NCBI GenBank assembly: GCA_028719205.1
Contig: JAQUKH010000003.1
Location: 1-64,000, forward strand
Direction of reading: 5' to 3'
Length of the DNA: 64,000 nucleotides
DNA from: a bacterium
Lineage (GTDB): Bacteria > JACRDZ01 > JAQUKH01
Part shown: piece by piece, positions 4,881-39,876 of the stretch
How the letters are laid out: each line of letters opens with the position of its first letter
Position numbering within the stretch: position 1 is the first letter of the stretch
Notes under the pieces: model-generated
What the model saw: only the letters and a program-made list of their open reading frames with translations
What the model was told of the DNA's origin: nothing
The model's database searches: none
Program-made: the position numbers and the translations under genes

Positions 4881-5555
4881 TTGAAAAGAAATATTCTTTT
4901 TCTGGTTTTTACGTTATTTTTAGTATTGTTTTTCGGGTGCCATCGTGGCGGTGGCGATAATAGTATTAGTGGTAGTGATAATACCAGTGGTGGGACTGGT
5001 GGTAGTGGTGGGACTGGTGGAACTGGTGGAACCGGTGAGACTGGTGGAACCGGTGAGACTGGTGGAACCGGTGAGACTGGTGGTAGCGGTGAGAAAGGGA
5101 CAATTACTCCTGAAGTGAAAATAGTATTATCCGCAGTTCCTACACATCCTGGTGAATTTTCTATATATATTGAAATTTCAAATGCGGTGAATGCCGCAGG
5201 GATTTATTTCAGGTTAAATTATAATTCCAAAATTATACAGATTAAAAATATAAATATTCCGGAAAATAGTGTTACAAAAGGCGCATTTTTCACTAAGGGA
5301 GAAGCAGGAGTTGGTTTTCTTAACCAAAATCCTGATTCCGGATGTTTATTAGTAGGTTTATCCCGTGCCGGTGAAAATCCCGGGATTAATGGTTCAGGAA
5401 CAATAATGACATTTACATTTACCACTGTAAGCACAGGTTTTACTTCAGTTAAATTTAGCGAAACAGCGGAGGAAAATTCATTATTTACCCCGGAAAAACC
5501 ATTAGAAAGTATTTCTTCTGTCAAATGGACAAATGCGGAAGTGACCGTTAAGTAG
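4881..5555 (+). CDS. Lipoprotein with Gly/Thr linker and cohesin-like domain
   Basis: Lipobox-like LFFG-C, then a (GGT/GET)n linker. EFSIYIEISNAVNAAGIYFRLNYNSKII...VGLSRAG..PGINGSGTIMTFTF matches the cohesin strand pattern. Confidence 0.72.
   Translation: MKRNILFLVFTLFLVLFFGCHRGGGDNSISGSDNTSGGTGGSGGTGGTGGTGETGGTGETGGTGETGGSGEKGTITPEVKIVLSAVPTHPGEFSIYIEISNAVNAAGIYFRLNYNSKIIQIKNINIPENSVTKGAFFTKGEAGVGFLNQNPDSGCLLVGLSRAGENPGINGSGTIMTFTFTTVSTGFTSVKFSETAEENSLFTPEKPLESISSVKWTNAEVTVK
4986..5093 (+). repeat. Coding tandem repeat (9/18-bp period) encoding the Gly/Thr linker
   Basis: ACTGGTGGAACCGGTGAG occurs as 3 exact copies at 5022-5075, flanked by degenerate copies. Confidence 0.9.
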
Positions 5556-5611: not shown

Positions 5612-8600
5612 ATGAATATGTTTAAAAAAACAATATTTCTAATATTTTTGATTATTTTTATGAATAATATGGGTGTTTTTGCGGCTCCGTCTATTGTCAG
5701 CTTAACTGATAATAGAGCTGATTATACAGGCAGTCAAATCCCGAAATATGAGAAGTATGAAATAACTTTTACACTGGATTCCGCTTATTCAAATCCCTAT
5801 AATTTTGATACTTCAACAGGCGGGGTAAAAATTGACGCCTATTTTACTAATCCGGGAAGCGGTCTTACGGATACAGTTGCCGCCTTTTGGTTCCAGGATT
5901 ACGTAAGGTCAACGAGTGGATTAAATGAAGTATTGACTCTAACAGGAAGCCCCTGCTGGAAAGTCCGTTACGCGTCTGAAACTACAGGAGCTTTTAATTA
6001 TTCGCTGAAACTTAACGATTCGACAGGGGATTATATATTATCATTACCTGCTCTTACAGATACTACTTTTACGGTAGTGGACTCAAGCAATAAAGGCTTT
6101 ATACGGCTAAATCCAAGAAATAACCGTTATTTTGCTTATGAAAATGGAAATGATTTTTTTGGTATTGGTTTGGATGTAGCCTGGTGGCAGATCCCGGCAG
6201 GACACCAGACAAAAACTTATGCCTATGATGAATATTTTAGTTATATGAAACAAAATAAAATGAATTTTGCAAGGGTATGGATGGTTAATTCTATTTGGCA
6301 ATACCCTGATTGGGTGGTAACTATTCAGCAGGGGAAAAATAATATTGGATCCAATTATGATTTAGCCGATGCGTGGAGGATGGATAAAATTTTATCTTCA
6401 GCTAAAGATAATGGAATATATATACAACTTACTTTAGAGGATGTAAATAGTTTCGCGTATAATTGGGATGCAAATATTTATAATACCGTCAACAGCGGGC
6501 CGCTGGTTTATCGTTCAGAATTTTTTACTAATACTGCTGCGAAAAATTCATGGAAACAATTATTAAGATATTTAGTTGCCAGATATGGATATAATACAAA
6601 TATTTTGTCCTGGGAGTTGTGGAATGAAATAAACGAACTGCAATGGTCATTGGAGTTGGCGGAAAATTGGAATACAACTTGGGCAGATATTAAAACCTGG
6701 CATTCAGAAATGGCTCAAGATATAAAAAATATGGATGTAAATAAACACATGATTACCACAAGTACCGGTAGTTTTAAAACATTCTATGACTTATACAGTT
6801 TACCGGAAATAGAATATGCTCAAATTCACGGGTATTATGTAAAAAATTACACCGCTAATTATTCTCCGTCAGATATGTTTAAGCTTATTACATATTATTC
6901 AAAGGAATTGTATAAAACTGTTCCAAATAAACCAAATATTTTTGCGGAATTTGGGGCTTTAGGGTCATCCTGGACCTCTGCCGGAGGAGATTGTTATGAT
7001 GGGATTGCGCCTGATGATACTACTGGTATATATCTTCATAATGCTTTGTGGACTGGAACGATGCAGGGGTTAGCAACTACACCTTTATCATGGGCCTGGC
7101 CGGAACATTTAACTTATTTAGACTGGTGGCAAAACTATAAAATATTAAGCAATTATCTTGAAAGTGAAATTTCAAGTAAAAAGCTATGCGATACAACACT
7201 TGCTTTTGTAAATTCAACTTATGGCAATTTGCTTTCTAATCCGGGGTTTGAAAATGGTTTTACTGATTGGCTTAAGAATCCTACTACCACTATAAAATAT
7301 TCTATTGATACCACAATATCCCATAGTGGCGCAAAAAGTTTTAAATGGTCAAGTTCTGTGAATGAACCTATAACTTTCCAGCAAAGTGTTAGTTTGATAC
7401 CGAATTTATCTTATACAGTAAGCGGTTGGGTGAAAAAGGACACTATCGCAGGACCCGGGGTGCAAGTCTATGTTGCTACATCATCTAATGGTATTACTTG
7501 GACTAATTTCGCACTTTCCCCATATCTCAAGGGAACAAGTGATTGGGCACAATTTTCTTTTAATTTCACTGCGCCTGCGGCTACATCAGATAATTATCAG
7601 GCAAGAGTTGTTTTTGCTTTCACGGGGACATCAGGAACAATATGGATAGATGATGTACAGTTAGCGCCATCCGGGGTATACGCAACACCTTCTTCTGATA
7701 ATGCTAACTTGAGGATATTAGCGGGAAAAAACGATACTTCCGCGTTGGTTTGGGTCCAAAACAAGAATCACACATGGTACAATGTGGTTGTTTTAGATAC
7801 GGCTATAAACAGTGAGACAGGTTCTGTGAATATTCCAAGTATGAGCAATATGAATTATTCAGTTGAATGGTGGGATACATACTCTACAACCGGTACGTTA
7901 TTTAGAAAACAAAAAGCAAATGCCTCTGACGGCACTTTAAATATATTTTTACCGGTACCCTTAACAAAAGACATAGCGGCAAAAATAAAACCTCTTACAG
8001 ATTCAACTTTTTCTGTTCTGGATTGGACAGGGGAAATTGGATATACCAATGACGGAGTTAATCCTGAAAGCGGTTATAGTAATACTACTGTTTTTACTTT
8101 CAGGGTTAAATATACTGATCCCGGTAATTATTTCCCCGCTTATATGCGTTTATTGCTGGACAAAAATGGTGACGGTGATTATGCTGATAGCGGTGAAGTA
8201 ATTAATATGGATGAGGCTGATACTAATGATAATAATGTTACAGACGGGAAAATTTATACTAAGGATGTTACGATCCCTTTTTCCCCGGGATTCACGAATA
8301 TCTCTTATAAGTTCGAGGCGTATGATGGAATTTATCTTGCTTCAGGAACACCTGCAACGGCAATTAATTCGCCGGATTTGATATTAAATCTATCGCTGAC
8401 TATTTCATCCGCTGAAATTAATTTAAATAAACTCAATTTGGCCTCTTTTTCTCAACCTGCAAGTATTACTGTAAACAATACAGCCAATGAAGGTTTAGAG
8501 GCGTTTACGCTCCAGATCACCGGCGCGGGCGCTGATTGGGTTCCGGGTTCTGTTTCAGCAGGCAATACTTATGTGCTTAAAGCTCTTTTTACCGGAGAAA

Positions 8601-8827
8601 ATGATATTCCTGTCGCGGGAGATTTTAATGATGATGATATAGTTACAAGTGTAAATAAAACAGCAACTTCTACAATTTTCGGAGATCCTAAATTTTCGGC
8701 TAATGGAGCAAGTGTTCCTGCAGGCAGCGCTGTAAAACTTTGGTTACTATTTAAAACACCTAAGTCAAGTAATTCCCAAACAGAGCAAAATATCGCTCTT
8801 ACAATTGGGATTATTGATGCAAACTAG
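5612..8827 (+). CDS. Secreted multidomain glycoside hydrolase: DUF5060-like N-terminus, clan GH-A (GH5-like) barrel, CBM4/9-like module, C-terminal beta-sandwich domains
   Basis: Signal peptide. KYEKYEITF...NPY...WKVRY (DUF5060-like), WELWNE (acid/base), PNIFAEFG (nucleophile) and NLLSNPGFENG...IWIDDVQL (CBM4/9-like). Confidence 0.75.
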   Translation: MNMFKKTIFLIFLIIFMNNMGVFAAPSIVSLTDNRADYTGSQIPKYEKYEITFTLDSAYSNPYNFDTSTGGVKIDAYFTNPGSGLTDTVAAFWFQDYVRSTSGLNEVLTLTGSPCWKVRYASETTGAFNYSLKLNDSTGDYILSLPALTDTTFTVVDSSNKGFIRLNPRNNRYFAYENGNDFFGIGLDVAWWQIPAGHQTKTYAYDEYFSYMKQNKMNFARVWMVNSIWQYPDWVVTIQQGKNNIGSNYDLADAWRMDKILSSAKDNGIYIQLTLEDVNSFAYNWDANIYNTVNSGPLVYRSEFFTNTAAKNSWKQLLRYLVARYGYNTNILSWELWNEINELQWSLELAENWNTTWADIKTWHSEMAQDIKNMDVNKHMITTSTGSFKTFYDLYSLPEIEYAQIHGYYVKNYTANYSPSDMFKLITYYSKELYKTVPNKPNIFAEFGALGSSWTSAGGDCYDGIAPDDTTGIYLHNALWTGTMQGLATTPLSWAWPEHLTYLDWWQNYKILSNYLESEISSKKLCDTTLAFVNSTYGNLLSNPGFENGFTDWLKNPTTTIKYSIDTTISHSGAKSFKWSSSVNEPITFQQSVSLIPNLSYTVSGWVKKDTIAGPGVQVYVATSSNGITWTNFALSPYLKGTSDWAQFSFNFTAPAATSDNYQARVVFAFTGTSGTIWIDDVQLAPSGVYATPSSDNANLRILAGKNDTSALVWVQNKNHTWYNVVVLDTAINSETGSVNIPSMSNMNYSVEWWDTYSTTGTLFRKQKANASDGTLNIFLPVPLTKDIAAKIKPLTDSTFSVLDWTGEIGYTNDGVNPESGYSNTTVFTFRVKYTDPGNYFPAYMRLLLDKNGDGDYADSGEVINMDEADTNDNNVTDGKIYTKDVTIPFSPGFTNISYKFEAYDGIYLASGTPATAINSPDLILNLSLTISSAEINLNKLNLASFSQPASITVNNTANEGLEAFTLQITGAGADWVPGSVSAGNTYVLKALFTGENDIPVAGDFNDDDIVTSVNKTATSTIFGDPKFSANGASVPAGSAVKLWLLFKTPKSSNSQTEQNIALTIGIIDAN

Positions 8828-8844
8828 GCCTGCCCGCGGCAGGC
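8828..8844. repeat. REP-like palindrome, CCTGCC/GGCAGG family
   Basis: GCCTGCC-CGC-GGCAGGC directly after the stop codon. Relatives at 35284 and 62117. Confidence 0.65.
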
Positions 8845-8910
8845 AGATATTAGTCATTTTTTTAGGCAAAAGTCTTGGTCTGTAATTAGAATGTTCCCCC
8901 ATAATGCCGC

Positions 8911-8939
8911 TTGCGTAATCCTAAATTTTATGCTATAAT
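8911..8939 (+). promoter_or_regulatory. sigma70-type promoter of the polysaccharide operon
   Basis: TTGCGT-17 nt-TATAAT with an extended -10 TG. Confidence 0.65.
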
Positions 8940-9019
8940 AAACCTTTTAAAATCTGTGTAATCTCTTTTAAAGAATCGCTGTAATCAGCTGTAATTACCG
9001 TTATTTCAGGAGTAAATAA

Positions 9020-10444
9020 ATGGAACATTCGGATAAAATTGCTACAGGAAATTATTTAAATACAATAAAGCGTGTTCTTTTTAAACGCTGGTGGTTGATC
9101 CTTTTAATAACTTTTGTTGTTTCAATTTCTGCTTTTATCACCAGTAAAATTGTTGAGCCGGTTTACGAGGCCAGTACAAGTATTCGTGTGCAGTCTCCCG
9201 TTCAGTTAACGGGCGGAACATCGAATAGGCAGACGTTTGGACAAACTTCTCTGGGCCCGGAGGCTATGTGGTTAAGAAGCCGGTATTTACTTGAATTAGT
9301 TATGAAAAATCTGGGGATCGGGAATATAAACAATAAAGAAGAGTATGTTGCAATTATGGAAAAATTGGTAAGTAATATAAATGTGCAGACTTTTGAGGGC
9401 GCGAATACGCTTGTATTGACCGTGAGGTGGAATGATGCTGAGATGGTTGCTAAAATTACCAACACGCTTGCGGATACCTTTATTGAAAAATATCAATTGT
9501 TTAATAATGCCTTAGCTAAAGATAAAAGAGTTTACATTGAGGAACAACTGAATCTTATTCGTATAAAACTCGATGAAGTACAAAGAAATTTAAGTGATTT
9601 TCAGAAAAAAGAAGGTATTATTTCCCTTGATGAAGAAATAAAGGAAGTTACCAGCCGTATTGCCACGTGGGGAGCCAGGCGCTATCAGATAGAAATGGAT
9701 ATTAAGATCGCCCAGGCAAGATTTAATCAATTAAAAGAACAAATGCCTCAAACTAAAGGAGAAAGCGGCAAGGATTTGCAGGCTCTATTTTTTAAAGATA
9801 ATAGTGCCCTTTCGGCAATGCAGCAAAACATTTCCAATCTTGAAGCGGAAATAAATTCTATGAGTTATAAGTATACAGATGAATTCTCTCCGCTTTTAAT
9901 AAAGAAGAAAAAACTCGAGGAAATTAAATCTAGCTTTCAGGCTGAATTAACCAGGGCTACTTCCGGATATAAGTCTGATAATAATCCGAAAAATAAGGAT
10001 TTTATTTTAGACCTTGTTCAGACAGAAATGGAAATTGAGGCTAAACAAAATGAACAAATTTTTCTGGATGATCTGATAAAAAAAGAGCAGGAGAAGATAA
10101 AAACATTGCCGGAAAAACAGATCCGTTACATTGATATTTTAAGAGAAAATAAAGTTAATGAAGAACAGTACACCAATTTACTGAAAAGGCTGGCAGAGGC
10201 ACGGATCGAAGAGAACGTTGATATGTGGGATGTAAGAGTTTTTGACCGCGCGTATCAGCCTTTTCAGCCGTTAAAGCCCAGGCCGGTAAAAAATACTATT
10301 TTCGGCGCGATCATTGGATTGGTTTTAGGTATAGGATTATCCATGATATTTGAATATTTCGATGATTCATTTCATTCAGTAGATGAGGTGGAATTATTTT
10401 TAGGGTTGCCGGTTCTTGCGGCAATACCGAAGATGAAAAAGTAG
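9020..10444 (+). CDS. Polysaccharide co-polymerase (Wzc/GumC membrane and periplasmic part)
   Basis: N-terminal TM followed by PVYEASTSIRV, a long coiled coil, DRAYQPFQPLKPRP, a second TM, and EYFDDSFHSVDEVELFLGLPVLAAIP. Confidence 0.88.
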   Translation: MEHSDKIATGNYLNTIKRVLFKRWWLILLITFVVSISAFITSKIVEPVYEASTSIRVQSPVQLTGGTSNRQTFGQTSLGPEAMWLRSRYLLELVMKNLGIGNINNKEEYVAIMEKLVSNINVQTFEGANTLVLTVRWNDAEMVAKITNTLADTFIEKYQLFNNALAKDKRVYIEEQLNLIRIKLDEVQRNLSDFQKKEGIISLDEEIKEVTSRIATWGARRYQIEMDIKIAQARFNQLKEQMPQTKGESGKDLQALFFKDNSALSAMQQNISNLEAEINSMSYKYTDEFSPLLIKKKKLEEIKSSFQAELTRATSGYKSDNNPKNKDFILDLVQTEMEIEAKQNEQIFLDDLIKKEQEKIKTLPEKQIRYIDILRENKVNEEQYTNLLKRLAEARIEENVDMWDVRVFDRAYQPFQPLKPRPVKNTIFGAIIGLVLGIGLSMIFEYFDDSFHSVDEVELFLGLPVLAAIPKMKK

Positions 10445-10453
10445 GGAGTACTA

Positions 10454-11302
10454 ATGAAAAACGATTCAAGTAAAAAAGATCTGATCGGGCAAATCCTGAT
10501 CAACGCGGGTTTTATTACACATGAACAACTGATGTATGCGTTAAAAGAAAGGGAAAAGTCCGGCGGCCGTTTAGGTGAAACTTTAGTCCGTTTAGGTTAT
10601 ATATCAGCACAAACTATTGCCACTGTGCTTAAAAAGCAGCTTGCTTCTTCGCTTTTGGTTAATCATAAGATGCTGGAATCACCTGAATTCAGTGAATTCT
10701 ATCGGCTGCAGACCAGCATAAAAATGGCTCTTTTTTCTGATGACCCTATCAGATCAATAATGGTTACAAGCGCGGTTCCGGCGGAAGGAAAGAGTTTTAG
10801 TGTAAGTTATCTGGCGATGATCATGACTTCATTAATGAATAAAAGAACTCTCTTAATTGATGCCGATTTGCGGCGGCCTTCCATTCATTTGAAATTTGGA
10901 TTATCATTAATTCATGGATTGACGGACGTATTAGTGGATAATAAAAAAATAGATGAATGTTTACATGATACCGAGCAGGAGAATCTTAAAGTTTTAACCT
11001 CAGGTTCCCGCTGTACAAATACAACAGCTTTGTTGGGTTCCCAGAAAATGAAAAATCTGGTCGGCGAACTTAAAGAAAGATTTGATCTGCTGATTTTTGA
11101 TTCTTCTCCGCTTTATCCTTTAGCTGACTCGGTTCTATTGAGTTCTTATGTGGATGGAACAATTTTAGTTATAAAAGCCGGCGCCACCCGGAGAGGGATA
11201 GTGCAAAGGGCGGTAAATACATTGAAAGATACTAAAGGCAAAATTTTGGGAACTATTTTAAATCAAGTGGAATATGATGTTCCTAAATATGATTATTATT
11301 GA
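10454..11302 (+). CDS. CpsD/CapB-family bacterial tyrosine kinase with N-terminal MshEN module
   Basis: Walker A SAVPAEGKS, A' LLIDADLRRP, Walker B LLIFDSSP and a C-terminal Tyr cluster YDVPKYDYY. Residues 10-62 form a tandem MshEN-type motif. Confidence 0.88.
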   Translation: MKNDSSKKDLIGQILINAGFITHEQLMYALKEREKSGGRLGETLVRLGYISAQTIATVLKKQLASSLLVNHKMLESPEFSEFYRLQTSIKMALFSDDPIRSIMVTSAVPAEGKSFSVSYLAMIMTSLMNKRTLLIDADLRRPSIHLKFGLSLIHGLTDVLVDNKKIDECLHDTEQENLKVLTSGSRCTNTTALLGSQKMKNLVGELKERFDLLIFDSSPLYPLADSVLLSSYVDGTILVIKAGATRRGIVQRAVNTLKDTKGKILGTILNQVEYDVPKYDYY

Positions 11303-11341
11303 AATTAAAGCTATTAAACTTATCAAAAGGAGGCATTTGTA

Positions 11342-12337
11342 ATGAAAAAAATATTGGTTACGGGTGGAGCCGGTTTTATCGGCTCACATGTAGTTGACGA
11401 ACTTATAAAATCAGGCAAACAAGTAATTGTTTTAGACGACCTTAGCGGCGGTTTTAAAGAAAATGTAAACAAAAAAGCCAAATTTATTAAAGGAAGCATA
11501 ACGGATTATACACTTGTAAAGTCAATTTTTAAAAATAATCAAATAGAATATGTTTTCCATTTGGCTGCTTATGCCGCCGAAGGGTTGAGCCATTTTATAA
11601 AGAGATTTAATTATGAGAATAATCTTATTGGCAGTGTGAATTTGATCAATTGCGCTGTCAATTATAACGTAAAATGTTTCGTTTTTACTTCTTCCATTGC
11701 AGTTTACGGAAAAAATCAGCTTCCAATGAGAGAAGATATGATCCCTGTTCCGGAAGATTCGTACGGTATCGCGAAACTTGCCGTGGAACAGGAATTAGAA
11801 GCCAGCCATAAAATGTTCGGGCTGGATTACATTATTTTCAGGCCCCACAATGTTTATGGAGAAAAGCAGAACATCGGCGATAAATACAGAAATGTAATCG
11901 GCATTTTTATGAATCAGATCATGCATAAAAAGCCTATGAGTATTTTTGGCGATGGCACGCAATCAAGAGCTTTCAGTTATGTAGGAGATGTAGCCCCTAT
12001 AATGGTGGATTCGATAGCCAATAAAAACGCGTACAATAAAATATTTAATATTGGCGCTGATAAGCCCTATTCTGTTAAGGAGTTGGCGGAAAGAGTCGCT
12101 CTTGTAATGGGTACAACTCCTAAAATTAAATATTTAGAAGGAAGAAACGAAGTTTTACACGCCTACTCAGACCATTCAAAACTCCAAAAAGTATTTAAGT
12201 ATAAAGCAAGATTTGATTTAAATGAAGGCTTAAAAAGAATGGCTCAATGGGCTAAGAAAACCGGCAGCAAAGAAAGCAAGAAATTCAGTAATATTGAAAT
12301 AATAAAGAATTTGCCAAAAAGTTGGCGTGGAAAATGA
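11342..12337 (+). CDS. NAD-dependent nucleotide-sugar epimerase/dehydratase (extended SDR)
   Basis: TGGAGFIG, HLAAYAAEGLSH, YGIAK and RPHNVYG motifs. Confidence 0.9.
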   Translation: MKKILVTGGAGFIGSHVVDELIKSGKQVIVLDDLSGGFKENVNKKAKFIKGSITDYTLVKSIFKNNQIEYVFHLAAYAAEGLSHFIKRFNYENNLIGSVNLINCAVNYNVKCFVFTSSIAVYGKNQLPMREDMIPVPEDSYGIAKLAVEQELEASHKMFGLDYIIFRPHNVYGEKQNIGDKYRNVIGIFMNQIMHKKPMSIFGDGTQSRAFSYVGDVAPIMVDSIANKNAYNKIFNIGADKPYSVKELAERVALVMGTTPKIKYLEGRNEVLHAYSDHSKLQKVFKYKARFDLNEGLKRMAQWAKKTGSKESKKFSNIEIIKNLPKSWRGK

Positions 12338-12348
12338 TAAATTAGAAA

Positions 12349-13578
12349 ATGAAAATACTTTATCTGACATCCTGGCTTCCTTTTCCTCTTAGTACCGGTG
12401 CCAAAGTTCGGAATTATTATTTGCTTAAATATTTATCTGAAAAACATCAAATTGATCTTCTAACTTTTATTTTCAATAGAGAAGAAGAAAAAAATGTTTC
12501 AGCATTAGGCGGTATTTGCAAAAGAGTAAAAGCAGTGCTGGCTGTGGATAAAAAATTTAGCATTAATGAACACGTTTTAGCGCATTTTTCTGAAAAGCCA
12601 AAATCAATTCAATTTTCACGAAACGAGGAAATGGCAAAGCTTGTTTATGATTGGACAATAGAAAAAAGATATGATTTAATAATTATTGATCATATAATGA
12701 TGACAGATTATGTTTTAGGTTTAAAAGGTATTCCAAGAGTCATTGACCATCATAATATTGATGCCGTTATTTTAGAAAGAGACTATCAATTACAAAAATC
12801 ATCTCTAAAAAAAATAAGGCGATGGCTGACATGGCGAAAAGGTTTAAAATACGAGACAGGGGTAAGCGTTAAAATAGAGGCTCATACTTTTGTTTCTTCG
12901 GTGGATAAAGAGATTATGATGGGTTTAATTCCCAAAATAAAGCTTTTGGAAGTTGTCCCGAATGGAGTGGATCTGGATAATTATTTATACCGTGAATATA
13001 GTAAAAATGAAAGAAGTTCTCCTGTTATTATTTATAGCAGCCTTTTAAAATATCAGGCAAATCTTAACGGTTTAAAATATTTTCATGAAAGGATATTTCC
13101 CATTATAAAAGCTTCGCGCCCTGATATTAAACTTATAGTAACAGGAGATTATATCAATTTGCCTGTTAGAGATTTGCAAGATGATAAAAATATTGAATTC
13201 GTTGGATATGTAGATGATGTAAAAAAAGAAATATCAAAAGCAGGTGTTACCATTGTTCCTTTACAGGTCGGAAGCGGTACCCGTTTTAAAATATTAGAAT
13301 CAATGGCGATCGGTATACCTGTAGTTTCTACATCAATAGGCGCCGAAGGCATTGACGGCTTAAGGACAATAAATAGTTCGATGGTTCACGATTGTAACAT
13401 TTGGATTGCTGATGATCCTGAAGATTTTGCCAAAGGCGTTTTAGCTTTATTGTCTGATAGAGATTTAGCTGGAATATTATCAAAGAACGGAAGGAAATTA
13501 ATTGAAGAAAAATATGGTTGGGATAATATAGGAAAAAAAATGGATGAATTTATTGAAAAAGTTGTTAAGGGAGTATAA
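12349..13578 (+). CDS. GT4 glycosyltransferase (type associated with PEP-CTERM/exosortase loci)
   Basis: PFPLSTGAKVR, VPNGVD and GSGTRFKILESMAIGIPVVSTSIGAEGI motifs. Confidence 0.88.
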   Translation: MKILYLTSWLPFPLSTGAKVRNYYLLKYLSEKHQIDLLTFIFNREEEKNVSALGGICKRVKAVLAVDKKFSINEHVLAHFSEKPKSIQFSRNEEMAKLVYDWTIEKRYDLIIIDHIMMTDYVLGLKGIPRVIDHHNIDAVILERDYQLQKSSLKKIRRWLTWRKGLKYETGVSVKIEAHTFVSSVDKEIMMGLIPKIKLLEVVPNGVDLDNYLYREYSKNERSSPVIIYSSLLKYQANLNGLKYFHERIFPIIKASRPDIKLIVTGDYINLPVRDLQDDKNIEFVGYVDDVKKEISKAGVTIVPLQVGSGTRFKILESMAIGIPVVSTSIGAEGIDGLRTINSSMVHDCNIWIADDPEDFAKGVLALLSDRDLAGILSKNGRKLIEEKYGWDNIGKKMDEFIEKVVKGV

Positions 13579-13581
13579 ATT

Positions 13582-14985
13582 TTGGATTTTATATTAGGAG
13601 ATAAAAATAAGACACTTAAAATTTTATTTTTATCAATCGTTTTGGCAGTAATAATAGGTTTCCTAATTGGTATATTATCCCCGCTTTATGGTATATTTGT
13701 AATAGCTTTTTTAGCTTTTTTAACACTTACACTTTCTAATCTTCGTTTTGGGATAATATTTTGGATAGTTACAGGCGGAGTTTTTGCTGTTCCTATTTAT
13801 TCTGTTCGTAATGCGGCAATATACCCAAGTATAACTATTTTATCATTACTATTATTTATTTGGATCATTTTATCTTTAGAAAAAGGAACATTTGGGATTA
13901 ATAGATCCAGCTTATTCTGGCCTTTGACTTTTCTTCTTATTATTACTATTCTTTCCAGTTTAAAAGGTGTTATTCTCTATGACCCTGATGTACACGGTGA
14001 ACACAGGTTTATTTTAGTTCAGATTCTCGCTTCAATTTTAATTATTTTTTCCATTTTGACAGCTTTTATGATAGAAAGATTTTTTATAACAAAAGAACAA
14101 ATTTATTTAGTCTATTGTGCTGTTATAGCTATCGGAATCGAATTAACCATTAGCGCTTATTTTAATCTTGAGAAATTTGGGATTTCTCAAGGAGGATGGT
14201 TCCCAATGGTACAGGCGCATGCCCTTTCATTAGCTTTTGCCAGCTTAATATTTATACCTGAATTATCCTTACTAAAAAAAATTGGATTTGTTATCTTAAT
14301 CATTTTTTCCTGTGAATTTGTCTTTTGGCAATTTTTTCGCGCGGGAGCAGGACAATGGATCGCGGGATGGATCGCCATGGGTATTCCTTTAATTTATATA
14401 CTTTTCCAAAAGTCAAAAAAATGGGGTATTTATCTTTTAGTTTTGTTTTTAGTTTTATTTTTTATACTGGCTGCTTCAAAGATCGAAGATGTGTTTTCCC
14501 TGGCAGAGTCAGAAAGGGATTATGACCGTTTTATAATGTGGGGATTTGCTTATAAACTATGGCTTAAAAACCCATTTTTCGGAATAGGCCCGGGAAATTA
14601 TATGGATTATGCCTTAACTTATTCGACTGAAGGATTTAAATATACTGCTGCCCATAGCCAATACTTTCAAATATTATCTGAAGTGGGAGGTTTAGGATTT
14701 ATTTGCTTTTGCTGGGTAATTGTAAAGATATCTTTATTAGGAAGATATCTTATACATTCAGTTAAAGATAACTTTATAAAAGTATTTACTGTTGGAATAA
14801 TGGGAAGTATCTATGGCCAATTATGCGCAGGTGTTTTTGCCGATTATATTCTTCCATCCTATCATAATGGCGGGCTTAAAAATTTTTGTTCTACTGTTTA
14901 TTTTTGGGTTTTAGTGGGAAGTTTACTGGCTATTGAAAAAATTGTTAAAAAAGAGGAAAAGCTGGCTCAAGGGTGCAGGACATAA
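13582..14985 (+). CDS. O-antigen ligase / Wzy_C-family polytopic membrane protein
   Basis: About 12 hydrophobic segments, plus R..MW...LW.KNPFFGIGPGNY and AHSQYFQILSEVGGLG. Confidence 0.82.
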   Translation: MDFILGDKNKTLKILFLSIVLAVIIGFLIGILSPLYGIFVIAFLAFLTLTLSNLRFGIIFWIVTGGVFAVPIYSVRNAAIYPSITILSLLLFIWIILSLEKGTFGINRSSLFWPLTFLLIITILSSLKGVILYDPDVHGEHRFILVQILASILIIFSILTAFMIERFFITKEQIYLVYCAVIAIGIELTISAYFNLEKFGISQGGWFPMVQAHALSLAFASLIFIPELSLLKKIGFVILIIFSCEFVFWQFFRAGAGQWIAGWIAMGIPLIYILFQKSKKWGIYLLVLFLVLFFILAASKIEDVFSLAESERDYDRFIMWGFAYKLWLKNPFFGIGPGNYMDYALTYSTEGFKYTAAHSQYFQILSEVGGLGFICFCWVIVKISLLGRYLIHSVKDNFIKVFTVGIMGSIYGQLCAGVFADYILPSYHNGGLKNFCSTVYFWVLVGSLLAIEKIVKKEEKLAQGCRT

Positions 14986-15929: not shown

Positions 15930-16799
15930 ATGAAAAACCTAAAGGTTGTTTTTAAATGGTTTATAGTTAGTTGTTTATTTTTAGGATTATTTTTAATATT
16001 ATATCCGGTAACAAGAAGTTATGTAAAACCACCTTTTTGGGAAGTTCTCCATATGCCGAAATATGTGGCGATTACAGTAGATGCTGAAAGTATAAAAATA
16101 CCTGAAGGTATTGAAAGAATATCTGTTATAAGAGATATTCTTGAAAAAAAATATAACATTAAGATACCTATCACCTGGTTCGTTATGTATGATAAAAATT
16201 TTAATGGTTTTGAGCTAGCTTTGGATAAATGGACAGAACTTAAAAAAAGAGGAGATGAAATTGGGTGGCATTATCATGCATCCTCATTTAAAAAGGATCT
16301 AAGTTATGACAGCGCGTTAAATGAAACAGCACAGGATCTACAAACATTATTCCCACAAATTAAAAATAAATATAATTTTGATATTGAATCTTTCAGGTTT
16401 GGCTGGTTTTTTATTCCTGGTTTCAAGCTTTTTGACACTTTAAAAGCTCTGGGAATAAAAACAGATGCTTCATATTGCGACAGTGTTATTGGCCAAGAAT
16501 ATTATAATGGAAAGATCAGAATATCTTATGATAGAATAATAAAAAAACCACAAGAAGTAAATGGTATATTCGAGGTCCCCAGAATTGCAAATAATAAAAA
16601 CATTGAAGTTATTTTATTACACGATTGGACATTGCTGGAACACAATTTTAGCTGGCATAATCCTGATTTAAATGAAATTGTAAAAGCAGAAGTGGATTTT
16701 ATAGATGAGGTGGAAAAATATTTAAAATTCCACAGGTTATTTCCATCTTATTGTCAATTTATAACAATTAAGGGAGTTAAAAATGCTTACAGCAATTAA
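15930..16799 (+). CDS. Polysaccharide deacetylase-like (NodB/CE4-type fold) protein with N-terminal anchor
   Basis: AITVDAE, ITWF, GDEIGWHYH, SFRFGW and LLHDW resemble the CE4 metal-binding motifs. Confidence 0.55.
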   Translation: MKNLKVVFKWFIVSCLFLGLFLILYPVTRSYVKPPFWEVLHMPKYVAITVDAESIKIPEGIERISVIRDILEKKYNIKIPITWFVMYDKNFNGFELALDKWTELKKRGDEIGWHYHASSFKKDLSYDSALNETAQDLQTLFPQIKNKYNFDIESFRFGWFFIPGFKLFDTLKALGIKTDASYCDSVIGQEYYNGKIRISYDRIIKKPQEVNGIFEVPRIANNKNIEVILLHDWTLLEHNFSWHNPDLNEIVKAEVDFIDEVEKYLKFHRLFPSYCQFITIKGVKNAYSN

Positions 16800-17565
16800 G
16801 GACTTAATACAATATAGGGATCTTTTGTTTATTCTGGCAGCGCGTGATATTAAGGTGAGATATAAGCAAACCTTTATGGGTATTGCGTGGGCGCTATTGC
16901 AGCCGCTTTCATTAGTGATTATTTTTACCATTGTATTTTCTAAACTTGCAAGGGTTCCGTCAGAGGGCATTCCTTATCCAATATTTTCTTATTGTGCTAT
17001 TCTCCCGTGGATATTCTTTTCATCATCGGTTAATACCGGGGTTTCCAGTATTGTTAGTAATATGAATTTGGTTACAAAAATTTATTTTCCAAGAGAGGTA
17101 TTGCCATTTGCCACCATGATAGCCTGTTTATTTGATTTTCTTATCGCTTCGATAATATTTATCGGTATGATGATATTCTACAAGATAAGCCTGACAATTT
17201 ATATGTTTTGGGTTCCTTTGATAATACTGATCCAAATAATATTTACTTTAGGGTTTGTTTTATTAAGTTCAGCCGGAAATGTATTTTTTCGTGATGTGAA
17301 GCATGTTATGCCTATTTTAGTCCAGCTTTGGATGTATTTGACTCCAATAATTTATCCTTTAAGTTTAGTCCCCGAAAAATACAAGGTATTTTACATGCTT
17401 AATCCTATGGCCGGGATAATTGAAAGTTATAGAAATGTAATTCTTAAAGATCTCCCGCCGGATTATTTTTATCTGAGTTTAGCTTTTATTGTTTCGTTAG
17501 TTTTGTTTATTCTGGGATATACTTATTTTAAAAAATCAGAAAAAGTATTTGCAGATATAATTTAG
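16783..17565 (+). CDS. wzm: ABC-2 polysaccharide exporter permease
   Basis: RDIKVRYKQTFMGIAWALLQPL, LVTKIYFPRE, YLTPIIYP and LNPMAGIIESYR. Confidence 0.92.
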   Translation: MLTAIKDLIQYRDLLFILAARDIKVRYKQTFMGIAWALLQPLSLVIIFTIVFSKLARVPSEGIPYPIFSYCAILPWIFFSSSVNTGVSSIVSNMNLVTKIYFPREVLPFATMIACLFDFLIASIIFIGMMIFYKISLTIYMFWVPLIILIQIIFTLGFVLLSSAGNVFFRDVKHVMPILVQLWMYLTPIIYPLSLVPEKYKVFYMLNPMAGIIESYRNVILKDLPPDYFYLSLAFIVSLVLFILGYTYFKKSEKVFADII

Positions 17566-17573
17566 GAGAATTT

Positions 17574-32377: not shown

Positions 32378-33793
32378 ATGGAACCTGCAAACAGAAGGGC
32401 AATTTTTGTTTTTTATATGGTGGCAATGGACACTTTTTTGATAAGCTGCGCTTTTATTTTAGCATATAAATTGCGAGAAACTGTTTCTATATTTGGAATT
32501 GAAGCTGGACTTGGGAGTGCTAACTATAACACTATGTATCCTGTAATGCTTTTTTCATGGCTTACTATTCTTACCATAATGAGGCAGTATGAATCAAGAA
32601 GGAGATGGGGCGTAGATGAGATATTTTTTTCCATTTCGATCGCAGTCAGCCTGGAAATTCTTTTTATTCTGGCTTATTTTTACGCGACACATCAGCTTCT
32701 TTTCCAAAGGCTTATGTTGCTTTATTTATGGGCTTTTGGTATTATATTCTTAAGCAGTTCAAGGATTATTGCCCGTTATATTCTTAGAACGCTGGCGCGA
32801 AAAGGGGGGCAGATAGTAAAAAAGGTCCTTATCGCGGGGTGGGGAGAAGCTGCCAGAAAATTAGCATGGCAGTATAAATTTCACAGGGAGATGCTTTTTG
32901 AAGTAGTCGGTTTTGTTTTGGAAGAAGATCTGAAAGTGACTAAAGATATTGAAGAAAAGACTAAAGATCTTTCAAAAAAAGGGATAATTGGAACAGTCTC
33001 TGAGGTTTGCCAGGTGGCAATTAGAGAAAAAGTATCTTTAGTGATTTTAACAGGGTCAGCCCTTCGTAAAGAAAGATTGAAAGAAATATTTGAAACTTTG
33101 TGGAAAGAAAATATTGATTGCAGTTTGGTTCCTAATATTTATGAATTAGCGCCGAGATGCATGAGTTATGATGAGATCAGCGGTGTTCCTATGCTTTCTT
33201 TCAGGGATGTTCCTATGATAGGCTGGGAAGCAGTTGCGAAACGTATAATGGATATTATTGGTTCTGTTTTTGGATTGATTATTTTATCTCCGTTATTTAT
33301 TATTGTTGGGATATTAATTAAATTGGAATCACCCGGCCCTATTTTATTTAACCAGAAGAGAATCGGGCAGAATGGCCGTCCGTTCAAAATATATAAATTT
33401 CGAAGTATGGTGCAGGAAGCGGCTTCCGGGCCGCTGTATAAGGTTTTGAAAAATGATAACCGTGTTACCAAAATAGGTACTTTTATCCGTAAGACCAGCA
33501 TTGATGAACTGCCTCAACTGATTAATGTGTTAAAAGGAAATATGAGTTTAGTCGGGCCAAGGCCTGAAGCTACTATATTTGTTGAAGAATACAGTGAATG
33601 GAACAAGAGGCGGTTATATCTTAAGCCGGGGATAACCGGTTTGGCTCAGGCCAATGGCATTCGCGGTAATACTACTATCGATGAAAAAACTAAATATGAT
33701 CTGGAGTATATGGAACAGCAGTCGCTTCTTTTGGATATAAAGATTTTGTTTAAGACAGTGGTTACCTTACTTTCTCATAAGGAAGCATACTAA
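32378..33793 (+). CDS. Priming polyprenyl-phosphate sugar-phosphotransferase (WcaJ/WbaP type)
   Basis: Four N-terminal TMs, then KRIMDI, YKFRSM, RKTSIDELPQLINVLKGNMSLVGPRP and KPGITGLAQ. Confidence 0.93.
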   Translation: MEPANRRAIFVFYMVAMDTFLISCAFILAYKLRETVSIFGIEAGLGSANYNTMYPVMLFSWLTILTIMRQYESRRRWGVDEIFFSISIAVSLEILFILAYFYATHQLLFQRLMLLYLWAFGIIFLSSSRIIARYILRTLARKGGQIVKKVLIAGWGEAARKLAWQYKFHREMLFEVVGFVLEEDLKVTKDIEEKTKDLSKKGIIGTVSEVCQVAIREKVSLVILTGSALRKERLKEIFETLWKENIDCSLVPNIYELAPRCMSYDEISGVPMLSFRDVPMIGWEAVAKRIMDIIGSVFGLIILSPLFIIVGILIKLESPGPILFNQKRIGQNGRPFKIYKFRSMVQEAASGPLYKVLKNDNRVTKIGTFIRKTSIDELPQLINVLKGNMSLVGPRPEATIFVEEYSEWNKRRLYLKPGITGLAQANGIRGNTTIDEKTKYDLEYMEQQSLLLDIKILFKTVVTLLSHKEAY

Positions 33794-34641
33794 TGGATGA
33801 TCAAAAAAATATTGATCAAAACAGATTTTACACTATTCTTCTTTTTTCTTCTGTTTTTATACTTTATCTGCCGACATTTTATAAACTATATATGTGGTGG
33901 GAAAGTGACGTTAATTATAACCATGGGATTATTATTCCGTTAGCCGCGATTTATTTGATTTGGAAAAAAAGGGATATTTTAAAAACATTAAGAGCGGAAT
34001 CTTATACCCCGGGAATATACTTAATATTAGTGGGTATTATTTTTTATTTTATCGGAATAAGAATAGAATTTCTGAGAATAGCTATTTTTTCTTTTTTTTC
34101 TGTTCTTTTTGGGCTTCTTCTTTATTTTTACGGGAAGGAAGTTACGCGTGAATTATTATTTCCGATTTGTTTTCTTTTGTTAATGATCCCTATCCCTTAT
34201 ATCGATGGGCTTACCTTACCTTTAAAACTATTTGCGTCTATGGTATCAGCGGGATTTATTAAATTGATAGGGATACCGGTTATACGCAATGGAAATCTTA
34301 TTTACCTTAAAAATTTTACCTTTGAGGTAGCAACTTCGTGCAGCGGCCTGAAATCTATTGTTTTGGTTACAACAGTTGGAATATTCTATGCGTATATTAT
34401 GCAAAAAAGTTTATCAAGAAGATTATTTATTTCTATTTCATCAATTTTTATTGCTATTGTAGCCAATATTTCAAGGATTGTTTTAACCGCTCTTGTATCC
34501 TATTATTTTGGAGAAAAGCTGGCGTTTAAATTTACACACGATTTTTCAGGTATTTTTGTTTTTATAATAGCCGGAGCTATGCTGGTTATAACCGGGGAGG
34601 CTGTAAATTGGATATTTCGAGAAAAAACTACTGGATATTAA
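33793..34641 (+). CDS. Exosortase (EpsH/Xrt family)
   Basis: YNHGIIIP, and the catalytic triad context EVATSCSGL (Cys), ANISRI (Arg) and FTHDFSG (His). About 8 TMs. Confidence 0.92.
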   Translation: MDDQKNIDQNRFYTILLFSSVFILYLPTFYKLYMWWESDVNYNHGIIIPLAAIYLIWKKRDILKTLRAESYTPGIYLILVGIIFYFIGIRIEFLRIAIFSFFSVLFGLLLYFYGKEVTRELLFPICFLLLMIPIPYIDGLTLPLKLFASMVSAGFIKLIGIPVIRNGNLIYLKNFTFEVATSCSGLKSIVLVTTVGIFYAYIMQKSLSRRLFISISSIFIAIVANISRIVLTALVSYYFGEKLAFKFTHDFSGIFVFIIAGAMLVITGEAVNWIFREKTTGY

Positions 34642-35264
34642 CAGGAATATTTTTATTCCTGAGTATTATTATATATCCTATGTCACTAAATAAGGAAATG
34701 TGGCCGAAGGATCTTGACCTTTCGAGGTTTCCCCGTATAATAGGCGATTGGGAAGTTACTGAGGAATTACCTGTTACTGATGAATTATTGCCCACTGAAG
34801 TCAGGGAAGGCAGGGCAATTGGTTTTAAATCTTTCAGCAGAAAATATACAAATAAAGAGGGTAATTCTGTTTGGTTATATATAGGGTATTTCAATTATGA
34901 GAAAGGCGCTTATTCTCATAATCCTGCAAGATGTTATTTATCTCAGGGCTGGACAGTTATGGATGAAAAAATAGAAAAAATTGAAATGCCGGGGGATGTT
35001 AATGTAAATAGAATGTCCGCGCAAATGGGGCCGGTACAACAAATAGTTCTTTTTTGGTTCCAAATAGATAATGGAGTTTATACCGATAAATTCAAACATC
35101 GATTAAAAATTCTAAAAAATGCTTTATTTAATGGGCGGTTAGACGCGGTAATAATTAGTTTAACTTGTGATACTGAAAAGGATAACATTAACAACATAGT
35201 TCGATTTGAAAAAGATTTTGCAAAAGAGGTAATACCTGTTATTCCTAAATATCTACCCCAATAG
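34608..35264 (+). CDS. epsI: EpsI-family exosortase-associated protein
   Basis: FPRIIGDW, VWLYIGYF, HNPARCYLSQGW and VLFWFQ. Directly after the exosortase. Confidence 0.85.
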   Translation: MDISRKNYWILTGIFLFLSIIIYPMSLNKEMWPKDLDLSRFPRIIGDWEVTEELPVTDELLPTEVREGRAIGFKSFSRKYTNKEGNSVWLYIGYFNYEKGAYSHNPARCYLSQGWTVMDEKIEKIEMPGDVNVNRMSAQMGPVQQIVLFWFQIDNGVYTDKFKHRLKILKNALFNGRLDAVIISLTCDTEKDNINNIVRFEKDFAKEVIPVIPKYLPQ

Positions 35265-35341: not shown

Positions 35342-36664
35342 TTGATGGATTTTAATACTAAAAATATTAAAGAACAAAAAATTGCTGTTGTAGGGCTTGG
35401 ATATGTAGGATTACCGCTTGCGGTTGAGTTCGGAAAGATTCTCAAAACCATAGGTTTGGATATTAACAAAAACAGGATAAATGAGTTAAATAAAAATTAC
35501 GATTACAATAATGAAATCTCAAAGGAAACATTTAAATCAGCTTCACTTCTGGAGTTTTCGTATGATTTTAAACGGTTAAAAGAATCGAATTTTATAATAG
35601 TGGCAGTACCTACTCCAATAACAAAACATAACGTTCCAGATCTATATTGTTTAGAAAGCGCGACGGAACTTGTAGGTAAAAACATGGGAAAAGGAAGTAT
35701 TGTGGTATTTGAATCAACTGTTTATCCGGGAGTTACCGAAGATGTATGTGTTCCCATTTTAGAGAAATTTTCCAAATTAAAATACAAAAAGGATTTTAAA
35801 GTTGGTTACTCCCCTGAAAGGATTAATCCGGGAGATACCGAACATACAATTGCAAAAGTAATTAAAGTTGTTTCAGGTTGCGACAATGATACCCTTGATA
35901 ATGTAGCCGCTGTTTATGGTTTAATTGCAAAGGCGGGTGTGTATAAGGCGGAATCCATCAAATGCGCTGAAGCGGCAAAAGTTATAGAAAATACCCAGAG
36001 AGATTTGAATATCGCGCTTATGAATGAATTGGCAATAATTTTTAATAAGATGGGTATTGATACCAAATCTGTTCTTGAAGCTGCCGGGACAAAATGGAAT
36101 TTTATTAAAATGAACCCGGGGCTGGTTGGCGGGCATTGTATCGGTGTGGATCCATATTATCTTACATTTAAAGCCGAAGAGATCGGTTACAATCCTCAGG
36201 TTATACTTGCCGGCCGCAGAATAAATGACAATATGGGGAAATATATCGCTGAACAAACTGTTAAACTGTTGATTGAGGCAGGGAAAACTGTTAAAGATTC
36301 TAAGGTTTTAGTTTTGGGAATAACTTTTAAAGAGAATATTAAAGATATTCGCAACAGCAGGGTTATTGATATAATTAATGAGCTTAAGGAATATGGAATT
36401 AAAGTAATTGTGTGCGACCCTCTTGCGGGTAAGGAAGAAGTTGAACATGAGTATGGAATTAAACTTGAGAATTATGATGCAAAACTAAAGTCTGACGCGG
36501 TTATAATTGCGGTTAATCATGCTAAGTTTAAAAATATTTTAAATATACAAAAGTTAAAGAATCATATGTCTGGAAAAAACAAAAAAGGTGTAGTTGTTGA
36601 TGTTAAAGGAATGTTTGAACCGAAAGTTTTTAATGGTTCGGGAATGCTCTATTGGAGGCTGTAA
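35342..36664 (+). CDS. UDP-N-acetylhexosamine 6-dehydrogenase (WbpO/TviB type)
   Basis: GLGYVGLPLA, ESTVYPG, YSPERINPGD, KVIENTQRD and GGHCIGVDPYYL. Confidence 0.92.
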   Translation: MMDFNTKNIKEQKIAVVGLGYVGLPLAVEFGKILKTIGLDINKNRINELNKNYDYNNEISKETFKSASLLEFSYDFKRLKESNFIIVAVPTPITKHNVPDLYCLESATELVGKNMGKGSIVVFESTVYPGVTEDVCVPILEKFSKLKYKKDFKVGYSPERINPGDTEHTIAKVIKVVSGCDNDTLDNVAAVYGLIAKAGVYKAESIKCAEAAKVIENTQRDLNIALMNELAIIFNKMGIDTKSVLEAAGTKWNFIKMNPGLVGGHCIGVDPYYLTFKAEEIGYNPQVILAGRRINDNMGKYIAEQTVKLLIEAGKTVKDSKVLVLGITFKENIKDIRNSRVIDIINELKEYGIKVIVCDPLAGKEEVEHEYGIKLENYDAKLKSDAVIIAVNHAKFKNILNIQKLKNHMSGKNKKGVVVDVKGMFEPKVFNGSGMLYWRL

Positions 36665-38075: not shown

Positions 38076-38130
38076 ATTTGTTGTGATCTTTTTAGAAAAA
38101 AATAATTTTATAAAAGAAGGGGGTGAAAAA

Positions 38131-38919: not shown

Positions 38920-38973
38920 GTTAGTTGTGTTGAATGAGTCTTAAAAGACTCTAATTATTAATAAATAGAGTAA

Positions 38974-39004
38974 GAGAGAGGGTGTTTTAATAATACCCTC
39001 TCTC
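38974..39004. terminator. Intergenic hairpin between PEP-CTERM genes 1 and 2
   Basis: GAGAGAGGGTGTT...AATACCCTCTCTC. The U-tract is weak. Confidence 0.45.
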
Positions 39005-39112
39005 CTCATCTTTCTGGAAGCTAAGGGGATTAGAATATGAAAAAAAATAATTGTTTTTCATATTATAATGTGTTTAGTTATACATTATTAATAAAAATGT
39101 GAGGGATGAAAA

Positions 39113-39827: not shown

Positions 39828-39876
39828 GACAATTATCTGACAATATTGTGATTGTTACTTTCAAGGGGGATGGAAA

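Follow-up and report, generated by a model that had tools for sequence, protein, structure and literature searches.

The DNA analysed here, hereafter the window, is the first 64,000 nucleotides (nt) of contig JAQUKH010000003.1 from the bacterial assembly GCA_028719205.1. One of its genes, at positions 10454 to 11302 of the forward strand, encodes a single protein of 282 residues that carries an N-terminal pair of motifs of the MshEN_N type, the kind through which MshE binds cyclic dimeric GMP, or c-di-GMP, followed by a tyrosine kinase of the bacterial type (BY-kinase). Our preferred reading, which we consider moderately probable, is that this protein is the cytoplasmic half of a split co-polymerase/BY-kinase in a Wzy-type, exosortase-linked exopolysaccharide (EPS) locus, and that it is gated by c-di-GMP through its N-terminal helical bundle. 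The domain architecture is already on record; what is new is a sensor-bearing BY-kinase that looks catalytically intact and belongs to a rare clade outside the EpsG family. An earlier reading of the bare nucleotide sequence (the original prediction) had proposed that c-di-GMP could control such a kinase directly, and overall it is partly supported by the analysis presented here.

The N-terminal module is a predicted c-di-GMP-binding motif of the MshEN_N type

Two 24-residue units joined by a five-residue linker had been read at residues 10–62 (nt 10481–10639), and a relaxed half-motif regular expression gave identical coordinates (Table 1). The curated profile NF053729 (c-di-GMP_motif, MshE-related) matches residues 11–62 over profile positions 2–53 of 53, scoring 68.7 bits where the cut-off is 38 (E = 2.7e-19). 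When NF053729 was searched against the whole genome, five matches were returned and the window protein was the best of them (70.9 bits). It outscores the matches in three long reading frames (570–636 residues) that are probably pilus or secretion ATPases. In a phmmer search of the PDB sequences, residues 1–75 matched three of the GSPII repeats of PilF (6f8l, E = 3e-19) and also MshE (5htl, E = 7.6e-7).

Structural comparison gave the same answer. An AlphaFold2 model of residues 1–75, built with 18 aligned relatives, has helices at residues 10–17, 23–36, 40–47 and 52–74 and a predicted local distance difference test (pLDDT) score of 79.6. In a Foldseek search of the PDB with this model, ranks 1 to 13 were all MshEN or GSPII chains, headed by chain B of 5htl, which is MshE with c-di-GMP (root-mean-square deviation, rmsd, 1.0 Å over 54 columns; 35% identity; probability 1.00; E = 2.9e-3). 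The curated profile and the fold thus agree on the MshEN architecture that had been claimed.

The proposed profile check came out less cleanly with Pfam, which assigned AAA_31 (33.1 bits) with sub-threshold ParA and CbiA matches, no family at the N-terminus, and no T2SSE_N match at E ≤ 0.1. Wang et al. (2016, PMC5013675) state in their supplement that the T2SSE_N model leaves out the first three helices, and with them the binding site. The Pfam miss is therefore no evidence against the module. In the full-length model there is also no beta-sheet subdomain of the MshEN_C kind (T2SSE_N1); helix 4 passes through a low-confidence linker into the kinase. Since both the beta subdomain and a T2SSE_N match are missing, the module corresponds to the MshEN_N half only, in line with what Wang et al. 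report for EpsG. In MshE, residues 1–62 (MshEN_N alone) bind c-di-GMP at least as well as residues 1–145 (PMC5013675).

We then compared the residues expected to contact the ligand, defined as positions 1, 2, 3, 17, 21 and 24 of each motif plus the turn glycines (PMC5013675). Numbered with an offset of −1 relative to MshE, these are L10, I11, G12, L26, L30 and R33 in motif 1 and R39, L40, G41, I55, L59 and Q62 in motif 2. Eight of the 12 agree exactly with the consensus and nine agree with an extended (R/K/L) form of it; the remaining three are I11 and I55 in place of Leu and R33 in place of Gln. The turn glycines G19 and G48 are both present, as are Gly12 and Gly41, the equivalents of MshE G11 and G40. 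In MshE, G11L abolishes c-di-GMP binding and G40I lowers it 72-fold (Wang et al. 2016, PMC5013675). Among the 21 N-terminal-type relatives, the counts for these two motif glycines are 20 of 20 aligned and 21 of 21, and Leu is invariant at position 17 of motif 1 as well as at position 21 of motif 2 (21/21 each). By curated profile and by fold, the module is an MshEN_N-type c-di-GMP motif that is predicted to bind the nucleotide.

The original prediction had cautioned that binding might be weakened because motif 1 begins with Leu for Arg and ends with Arg for Gln. The first half of this caveat is reversed by PilF GSPII-B of T. thermophilus (JBC 2024, PMC11731258), whose motifs begin with Lys and Leu and whose dissociation constant (KD) for c-di-GMP is 6 nM. 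Changing these first residues to Arg raises the KD 25-fold (Lys) and 4-fold (Leu), and in a K167L variant the Leu stacks on the guanine. The authors of that work widened the consensus to (R/K/L)LG... and suggested that very high affinity can be predicted from a hydrophobic residue at the first position. A variant domain with the changes R1M/R30K also retains c-di-GMP binding, at 2.6 µM (PMC5013675, supplement). The second half of the caveat survives: binding may still be weakened by the Arg that replaces Gln as the last residue of motif 1.

The kinase looks catalytically intact and has a changed oligomerisation motif

The CpsD/CapB-type profile TIGR01007 matches residues 86–282 with 153.6 bits, well over its cut-off of 108.05, and nothing else in the whole genome passes that cut-off. 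With the full-length model as query, Foldseek ranked VpsO first (6u1q, E = 2.7e-19, TM-score 0.83 by target length) and then CapB and Wzc (E-values down to 1e-13). Sequence searches likewise found 6u1q (1e-31) and CapB chimeras (about 1e-25). BY-kinases are marked by a Walker A motif GX5GK[ST], a Walker A' motif of four hydrophobic residues followed by DXDXR, and a Walker B motif of four hydrophobic residues followed by DX2P (PMC9800525). The profile match and the presence of these motifs uphold the original description of an intact CpsD/CapB-type kinase with Walker A, A' and B motifs and a tyrosine cluster. The first Walker A position is Ser in the window protein, as it is in all 236 relatives without the module. 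Four of the last 25 residues are Tyr, and all four fall within the last nine.

These features are shared by the clade to which the window protein belongs. It comprises 21 members, namely 20 proteins of the N-terminal type (P0001–P0019 and P0122) and P0121, and all 21 keep GK[ST] together with at least two Tyr (range 2–5) in the last 25 residues. The kinase therefore looks catalytically intact and is predicted to be an active autokinase.

One element that is involved in assembly differs. In BY-kinases, the oligomerisation motif (O-motif) EX2RX2R, on the helix before the P-loop, builds an octameric ring, and the tyrosine tails are phosphorylated in trans (PMC9800525). The full motif is absent from the window protein, which has EFYRLQT with Thr87 in place of the final Arg. 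Of the 21 N-terminal-type members, 19 have Thr at this last position, as does P0121; of the 236 module-free relatives, only two have Thr and 183 have Arg. As judged from the aligned sequences, Thr at the end of the O-motif is a clade-specific change.

A proposed route for c-di-GMP control and its alternatives

The gene lies directly behind that of a polysaccharide co-polymerase (PCP), the kinase's membrane partner, and the bundle adjoins both the O-motif helix and the co-polymerase/kinase junction. We propose that the first 62 residues would form an MshEN_N four-helix bundle that binds one molecule of c-di-GMP and that a flexible linker of about 18 residues would join this bundle to an active tyrosine autokinase. 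Occupancy by c-di-GMP would alter docking of the kinase on the co-polymerase tail, assembly of the ring in which the C-terminal tyrosines are mutually phosphorylated, or both. Through such effects the nucleotide would act as a gate on the phosphorylation cycle, which sets the pace of polymerisation and export. By analogy with other EPS systems, our guess is that high c-di-GMP would favour polymer production. A further and rather doubtful idea is that c-di-GMP decides whether the trans-phosphorylating ring assembles on the co-polymerase, and that the O-motif has given up its last Arg because assembly has become ligand-dependent. If true, it would make this the first case of a Wzy-type pathway, here an exosortase-linked one, under direct control by a second messenger, distinct from the synthase-type receptors PilZ, PelD, PgaCD and NfrB.

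A number of observations weigh against gating by c-di-GMP. Foldseek gave modest E-values for this small module (2.9e-3 at best), both models are of moderate confidence (pLDDT about 79; 78.7 for the full-length protein and 79.6 for residues 1–75), and there is the T2SSE_N miss described above. Motif 1 ends with Arg and not Gln, and the MshE substitution Q32A costs 9-fold in affinity (PMC5013675); among the 21 clade members, seven have K at this last position, five have R and only four have Q. Two key Leu residues are Ile here, and the substitutions measured in MshE are only to Ala and Val (PMC5013675). No diguanylate cyclase gene lies inside the window; the nearest is about 100 kb away on the same contig, so that nothing points to local signalling. 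In G005, a genome from the same genus (92% complete), both the fused kinase and an exosortase are missing. Searchable papers yielded no measurement of binding or activity for the window protein or any relative, and the sign and the route of regulation are pure inference. Co-folding of the kinase domain (residues 80–282) with c-di-GMP and the module (residues 1–75) scored 0.00 against a mark of 0.32 and was counted neither way. In favour of gating, on the other hand, c-di-GMP synthases are present: GGDEF was matched 18 times in the source genome (2.59 Mb in 68 contigs, 92.7% complete), each time above the Pfam cut-off, and the organism thus has a large c-di-GMP network.

Some MshEN-like domains fail to bind c-di-GMP, for example that of XpsE and PilF GSPII-A (for the latter, PMC11731258). 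The window module could likewise be a degenerate bundle that does not bind the nucleotide and acts in docking or dimerisation, for example with the cytoplasmic parts of the co-polymerase or with another partner. It would then resemble the protein-binding N-terminal domains of some secretion ATPases, and the N-terminus of X. citri PilB with PilZ (7lkm) is found among the weaker fold matches, at rank 14. Motif 1 also deviates at its first and last positions, and the last is variable in the clade. However, the NF053729 score is nearly twice the cut-off and the best in the genome, and the nucleotide-contacting glycines and paired leucines are the most conserved positions in the clade. The deviant first residue is one for which high affinity is documented (PMC11731258), and the nearest solved structures are ligand-bound MshE and PilF GSPII-B. 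We consider a non-binding bundle unlikely on this balance. Binding of c-di-GMP by the module and its coupling to kinase activity are both inferred.

It is also conceivable, though we think it quite unlikely, that the module does bind c-di-GMP and controls where the kinase goes or what it phosphorylates. UDP-sugar dehydrogenases of the UDPG_MGDP_dh kind are BY-kinase substrates, and a gene of this family lies in the same locus at 35342–36664. Its product is a possible second substrate, through which supply of precursor could be tuned, and the flexible low-confidence linker between module and kinase would suit such a role. Three features point instead to the core machine, although none of them excludes a side substrate: the co-polymerase is a conserved partner, the module sits at the co-polymerase/kinase junction, and the O-motif change is specific to the clade.

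Relation to EpsG and the published record

The original prediction knew of no characterised example of this fusion. This holds to the extent that no binding or kinase test was found in print, but the architecture had been catalogued in 2016 and one curated family, TIGR03029 (EpsG), spans both domains. Wang et al. list "MshEN_N - AAA_31, Methylobacillus sp. EpsG" in their Supplementary Table 4, include EpsG of M. flagellatus among predicted c-di-GMP binders in Supplementary Table 3, and note that EpsG had been proposed as a chain-length-determinant tyrosine kinase (PMC5013675). In the openly searchable literature, which leaves subscription papers outside, we found no test of c-di-GMP binding or control for any BY-kinase. 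The accessible part of a 2021 review on how c-di-GMP controls EPS post-translationally (PMC8461298) mentions neither MshEN nor tyrosine nor Wzy.

The window protein and EpsG have a common domain order and similar length, with positions 5–274 of the 274 in TIGR03029 aligning to window residues 11–271, and c-di-GMP binding is predicted for EpsG too (PMC5013675). Nevertheless, the window protein scores only 105.2 bits against the TIGR03029 equivalog cut-off of 313.8 and is not a member; the two also fall into separate clades of the kinase tree described below. The XrtA-associated tyrosine autokinase family TIGR03018 does not fit either, as the window protein scores 142.9 bits, below the cut-off of 230.65, and the locus exosortase falls short of the exosortase A profile that this family calls for.

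For comparison, EpsG was sampled from 401 evenly drawn genomes of Pseudomonadota, which gave nine full-length EpsG-like matches at E ≤ 1e-50 (L188–L196), three of them over the cut-off. A search for TIGR03029 in five proteobacterial genomes reached through related loci gave none over the cut-off (0/5). A co-polymerase gene lies upstream in six of the nine sampled loci, as in the window, and the N-terminal module was detectable with a custom hidden Markov model (HMM) in eight; the ninth, L194, has no detectable sensor motif. The catalytic apparatus of these proteins is much less complete. The P-loop GK[ST] is kept in only three of nine, and in the other six the Lys is replaced by R, A, T or C. 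Asn stands for the second Walker A' Asp in four of nine and Ala for the Walker B Pro in six of nine. None has a tyrosine cluster (0/9), and never more than one Tyr occurs near the C-terminus. Thus, the window clade, in which the P-loop Lys and the Tyr cluster are kept in 21 of 21 members, is unlike most of the sampled EpsG-like proteins.

The end-to-end likeness to EpsG, the missing P-loop Lys and tyrosine clusters in that sample and the incomplete O-motif of the window protein could suggest a pseudokinase, that is, a nucleotide-binding scaffold with the c-di-GMP module as its sole signalling input, but this is highly improbable given that Lys113, both Walker A' Asp, the Walker B Asp and Pro and the four terminal Tyr are all present, that these features are conserved in 21/21 clade members, that the protein passes TIGR01007 and not TIGR03029, and that the kinase tree sets it apart from the EpsG clade.

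Distribution of the fusion

The window-type fusion clade is rare. In a collection clustered at 90% identity, full-length fused forms account for 19 of the best 120 of 805 matches (E ≤ 1e-5). In a library clustered at 50% (1.84 billion representatives), the best 150 matches include four window-type clusters, P0014, P0019, P0122 and P0121. In the collection searched, the GTDB phylum of the window genome is represented by six species genomes, three of which have the fused gene. Among named protein relatives, the nearest bear the labels Candidatus Omnitrophica or Omnitrophota. Scans for related loci with kinase-domain patterns found one full-length fused relative among the 80 loci listed from genome contigs (L014) and one among the 80 listed from metagenome contigs (L094). 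A word-indexed search with residues 5–70 returned only five proteins, all close relatives, and is unfit as an architecture census.

In all three relatives with upstream DNA (L014, L174 and L176), a co-polymerase lies directly upstream of the fused kinase. An exosortase was present in four of four fusion genomes checked and absent from the one same-genus genome without the fusion, a comparison that covers few and related genomes.

The module is found in two further arrangements. P0121, which nests inside the window clade, has 781 residues and carries a co-polymerase, a connector of about 20 residues, an MshEN_N module and the kinase in one chain, an arrangement noted at residues about 440–580. 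This could be a genuine fusion of genes or a read-through call; among the best 120 long relatives, no other covers the N-terminus. In 11 other BY-kinases (P0032, P0078, P0124, P0130, P0147, P0148, P0150, P0159, P0195, P0199 and P0220), a two-motif module lies inside the catalytic domain, and two of these, P0032 and P0078, are annotated with PF14332 (DUF4388/PATAN). All 32 module-bearing BY-kinases, which had been preselected with the custom N-terminal HMM, match both NF053729 and TIGR01007 at E ≤ 1e-3. Four long proteins that align from query positions 5–29 (P0244, P0158, P0180 and P0188) were not counted as fused, since the N-terminal HMM gave no match to them. Because N-terminal and internal positions of the module cannot be interconverted by simple descent, the sensor has joined a BY-kinase at least twice. 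That the module occurs at the N-terminus, at the co-polymerase/kinase junction and inside the catalytic domain, three layouts in all, argues that the link between sensor and kinase is functional and not an accident.

A midpoint-rooted FastTree phylogeny of the kinase-domain match columns covered 269 sequences over 207 columns. In it, the nine EpsG-like proteins form one clade (support 0.997) and the window type another (22 tips, 0.93), whose sister, with weak support (0.599), is a group of 29 ordinary kinases without the module. A single origin of the EpsG and window-type fusions was considered and set aside, as the tree does not unite them. The 237 module-free sequences in this tree are the best matches to a window-type profile, the EpsG branches are long, and nine inserted-type proteins that fell below a 150-column filter were left out. 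The rooting, the 207 columns, the long EpsG branches and the choice of sequences leave room for a single ancient fusion.

Comparison with other receptors and kinases

The closest structural counterparts of the module are the N-terminus of V. cholerae MshE (5HTL) and T. thermophilus PilF GSPII-B (8PDK). Both have the same 24+5+24 arrangement of motifs in a four-helix bundle and superpose on the window model with an rmsd of 1.0–1.5 Å over 52–54 columns (35–38% identity), and PilF GSPII-B also has Leu at a first motif position (PMC11731258). Unlike either of them, the window protein has the MshEN_N half only, carries it on a BY-kinase rather than a secretion or pilus ATPase, and ends motif 1 with Arg. 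NfrB of E. coli, a c-di-GMP-activated glycosyltransferase with a C-terminal MshEN, is described as a further MshEN-type receptor on a polysaccharide biosynthesis enzyme, and residues 478–537 of the NfrB model NF008411 align to window residues 5–65. As described, however, NfrB is a synthase-type glycosyltransferase, whereas the window receptor sits on a regulator of a Wzy-type pathway.

On the kinase side, CapA/CapB (S. aureus), VpsO (V. cholerae) and Wzc (E. coli) match the window kinase in fold and Walker motifs. In the split CapA/CapB-type kinases, as in the window pair, the co-polymerase is a membrane protein of its own that has a cytoplasmic tail. CapB, VpsO and Wzc have the full EX2RX2R and no second-messenger module, in contrast to the window protein with its module and its Thr-ended O-motif. 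The inserted-type kinases (P0032, P0078, P0124 and others) share sensor motif and enzyme family with the window type; they differ in that the module lies mid-kinase together with a PATAN domain and not at the N-terminus.

Characterised post-translational c-di-GMP control of EPS concerns the synthase-dependent polymers cellulose, alginate, Pel and poly-N-acetylglucosamine (PNAG), as far as the accessible part of the 2021 review goes (PMC8461298), with NfrB in addition. Most capsules and many biofilm polymers are made by Wzy-dependent pathways, which are paced by BY-kinases, and the searchable literature yielded no small-molecule input to a BY-kinase. The EpsG family mostly looks catalytically dead, making a kinase read-out impossible there. 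In the window clade, the same sensor is carried by a kinase that is expected from its motifs to autophosphorylate, so that c-di-GMP gating can be put to a simple in vitro assay.

The gene and its locus

The features of the gene and the main genes of the locus are collected in Table 1. The PCP stop codon is at 10442–10444 and the kinase ATG follows 9 nt further on. A promoter scan of 8700–12400 found 14 promoter-like sites, compared to 12.1 ± 4.0 in shuffled sequence, and no terminator-like site was found on the + strand of that interval. This is mildly consistent with co-transcription of PCP and kinase.

Table 1. Positions in the window of the MshEN_N–BY-kinase gene, its parts and associated genes.
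Feature	Position	Strand	Basis and remarks
PCP, 474 aa, membrane partner of the kinase; cytoplasmic C-terminal tail about residues 444–474 (nt 10349–10441), after the last membrane helix	9020..10444	+	Pfam Wzz 40.2 bits, GNVR 41.5 bits
GGGAG ribosome-binding-like site	10444..10448	+	Read from sequence; 5 nt before ATG; overlaps PCP stop codon
Whole gene, MshEN_N–BY-kinase, 282 aa	10454..11302	+	Open reading frame (ORF) list and translation; ATG start; stop codon included
c-di-GMP motif 1, residues 10–33; key positions L, I, G, L, L, R	10481..10552	+	Regular expression; NF053729; alignment to MshE 5htl, offset −1
Five-residue spacer, residues 34–38	10553..10567	+	Regular expression
c-di-GMP motif 2, residues 39–62; key positions R, L, G, I, L, Q	10568..10639	+	Regular expression; NF053729; alignment to 5htl
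Low-confidence linker between sensor module and kinase, residues 63–80	10640..10693	+	Full-length model, mean pLDDT 50 (block 61–70) and 49 (block 71–80)
O-motif position, residues 81–87, EFYRLQT, helix before P-loop	10694..10714	+	Motif definition in PMC9800525
BY-kinase catalytic domain, residues 86–282	10709..11299	+	TIGR01007 153.6 bits; Foldseek VpsO 6u1q
Walker A / P-loop SAVPAEGKS, residues 106–114, catalytic Lys113	10769..10795	+	Sequence
Walker A' LLIDADLR, residues 133–140	10850..10873	+	Sequence; motif definition in PMC9800525
Walker B LLIFDSSP, residues 212–219	11087..11110	+	Sequence; motif definition in PMC9800525
C-terminal tyrosine cluster Y274, Y279, Y281, Y282, residues 274–282	11273..11299	+	Sequence
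Wzy_C-type polymerase, same locus	13582..14985	+	Pfam Wzy_C 52.5 bits
Priming polyprenyl glycosylphosphotransferase	32378..33793	+	Bac_transf 233.2 bits; TIGR03025 418.4 bits
Exosortase (33793–34641) and EpsI-family partner (34608–35264)	33793..35264	+	Exosortase_EpsH 215.6 bits, DUF3485 98.6 bits, EpsI_fam 80.9 bits
UDP-glucose/GDP-mannose dehydrogenase	35342..36664	+	Three UDPG_MGDP_dh domains

The co-polymerase itself scores 179.5 bits with TIGR03007 (pepcterm_ChnLen), under the cut-off of 278.85. Downstream of the kinase and on the same strand are genes for an epimerase, many glycosyltransferases, the Wzy_C polymerase, an ABC-2/Wzt pair, the priming phosphotransferase, the exosortase with its EpsI partner and the dehydrogenase. 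The exosortase passes the general profile TIGR02602 (185.6 bits, cut-off 105.55) and stays below the cut-off of the XrtA profile (188.6 bits, cut-off 208). Exosortase and EpsI partner together place the locus in the exosortase-linked EPS class.

Several other features of the region were noted. Positions 16783–18776 encode an ABC-2 permease together with an ATPase of the Wzt type that has a Wzt_C domain, in a locus that also holds a Wzy_C polymerase and the co-polymerase/kinase pair. Parts of two export routes are thus found in one locus, and two polymers may be made. The only Poly_export (outer-membrane export) gene of the genome is on contig 8, and its only LMW-PTP phosphatase gene is on contig 52, both outside the locus. 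Directly upstream of the EPS genes are a 224-residue cohesin-domain protein (4881–5555) and a 1071-residue protein with a signal-like N-terminus, DUF5060 and CBM_4_9 (5612–8827). Downstream of the exosortase, at 38083–40716, are three ORFs of 173–279 residues without a Pfam family, which are candidate exosortase substrates. One ORF, at 39113–39634, has a weak likeness to the XDD4 exosortase-dependent surface proteins (30.8 bits, cut-off 40).

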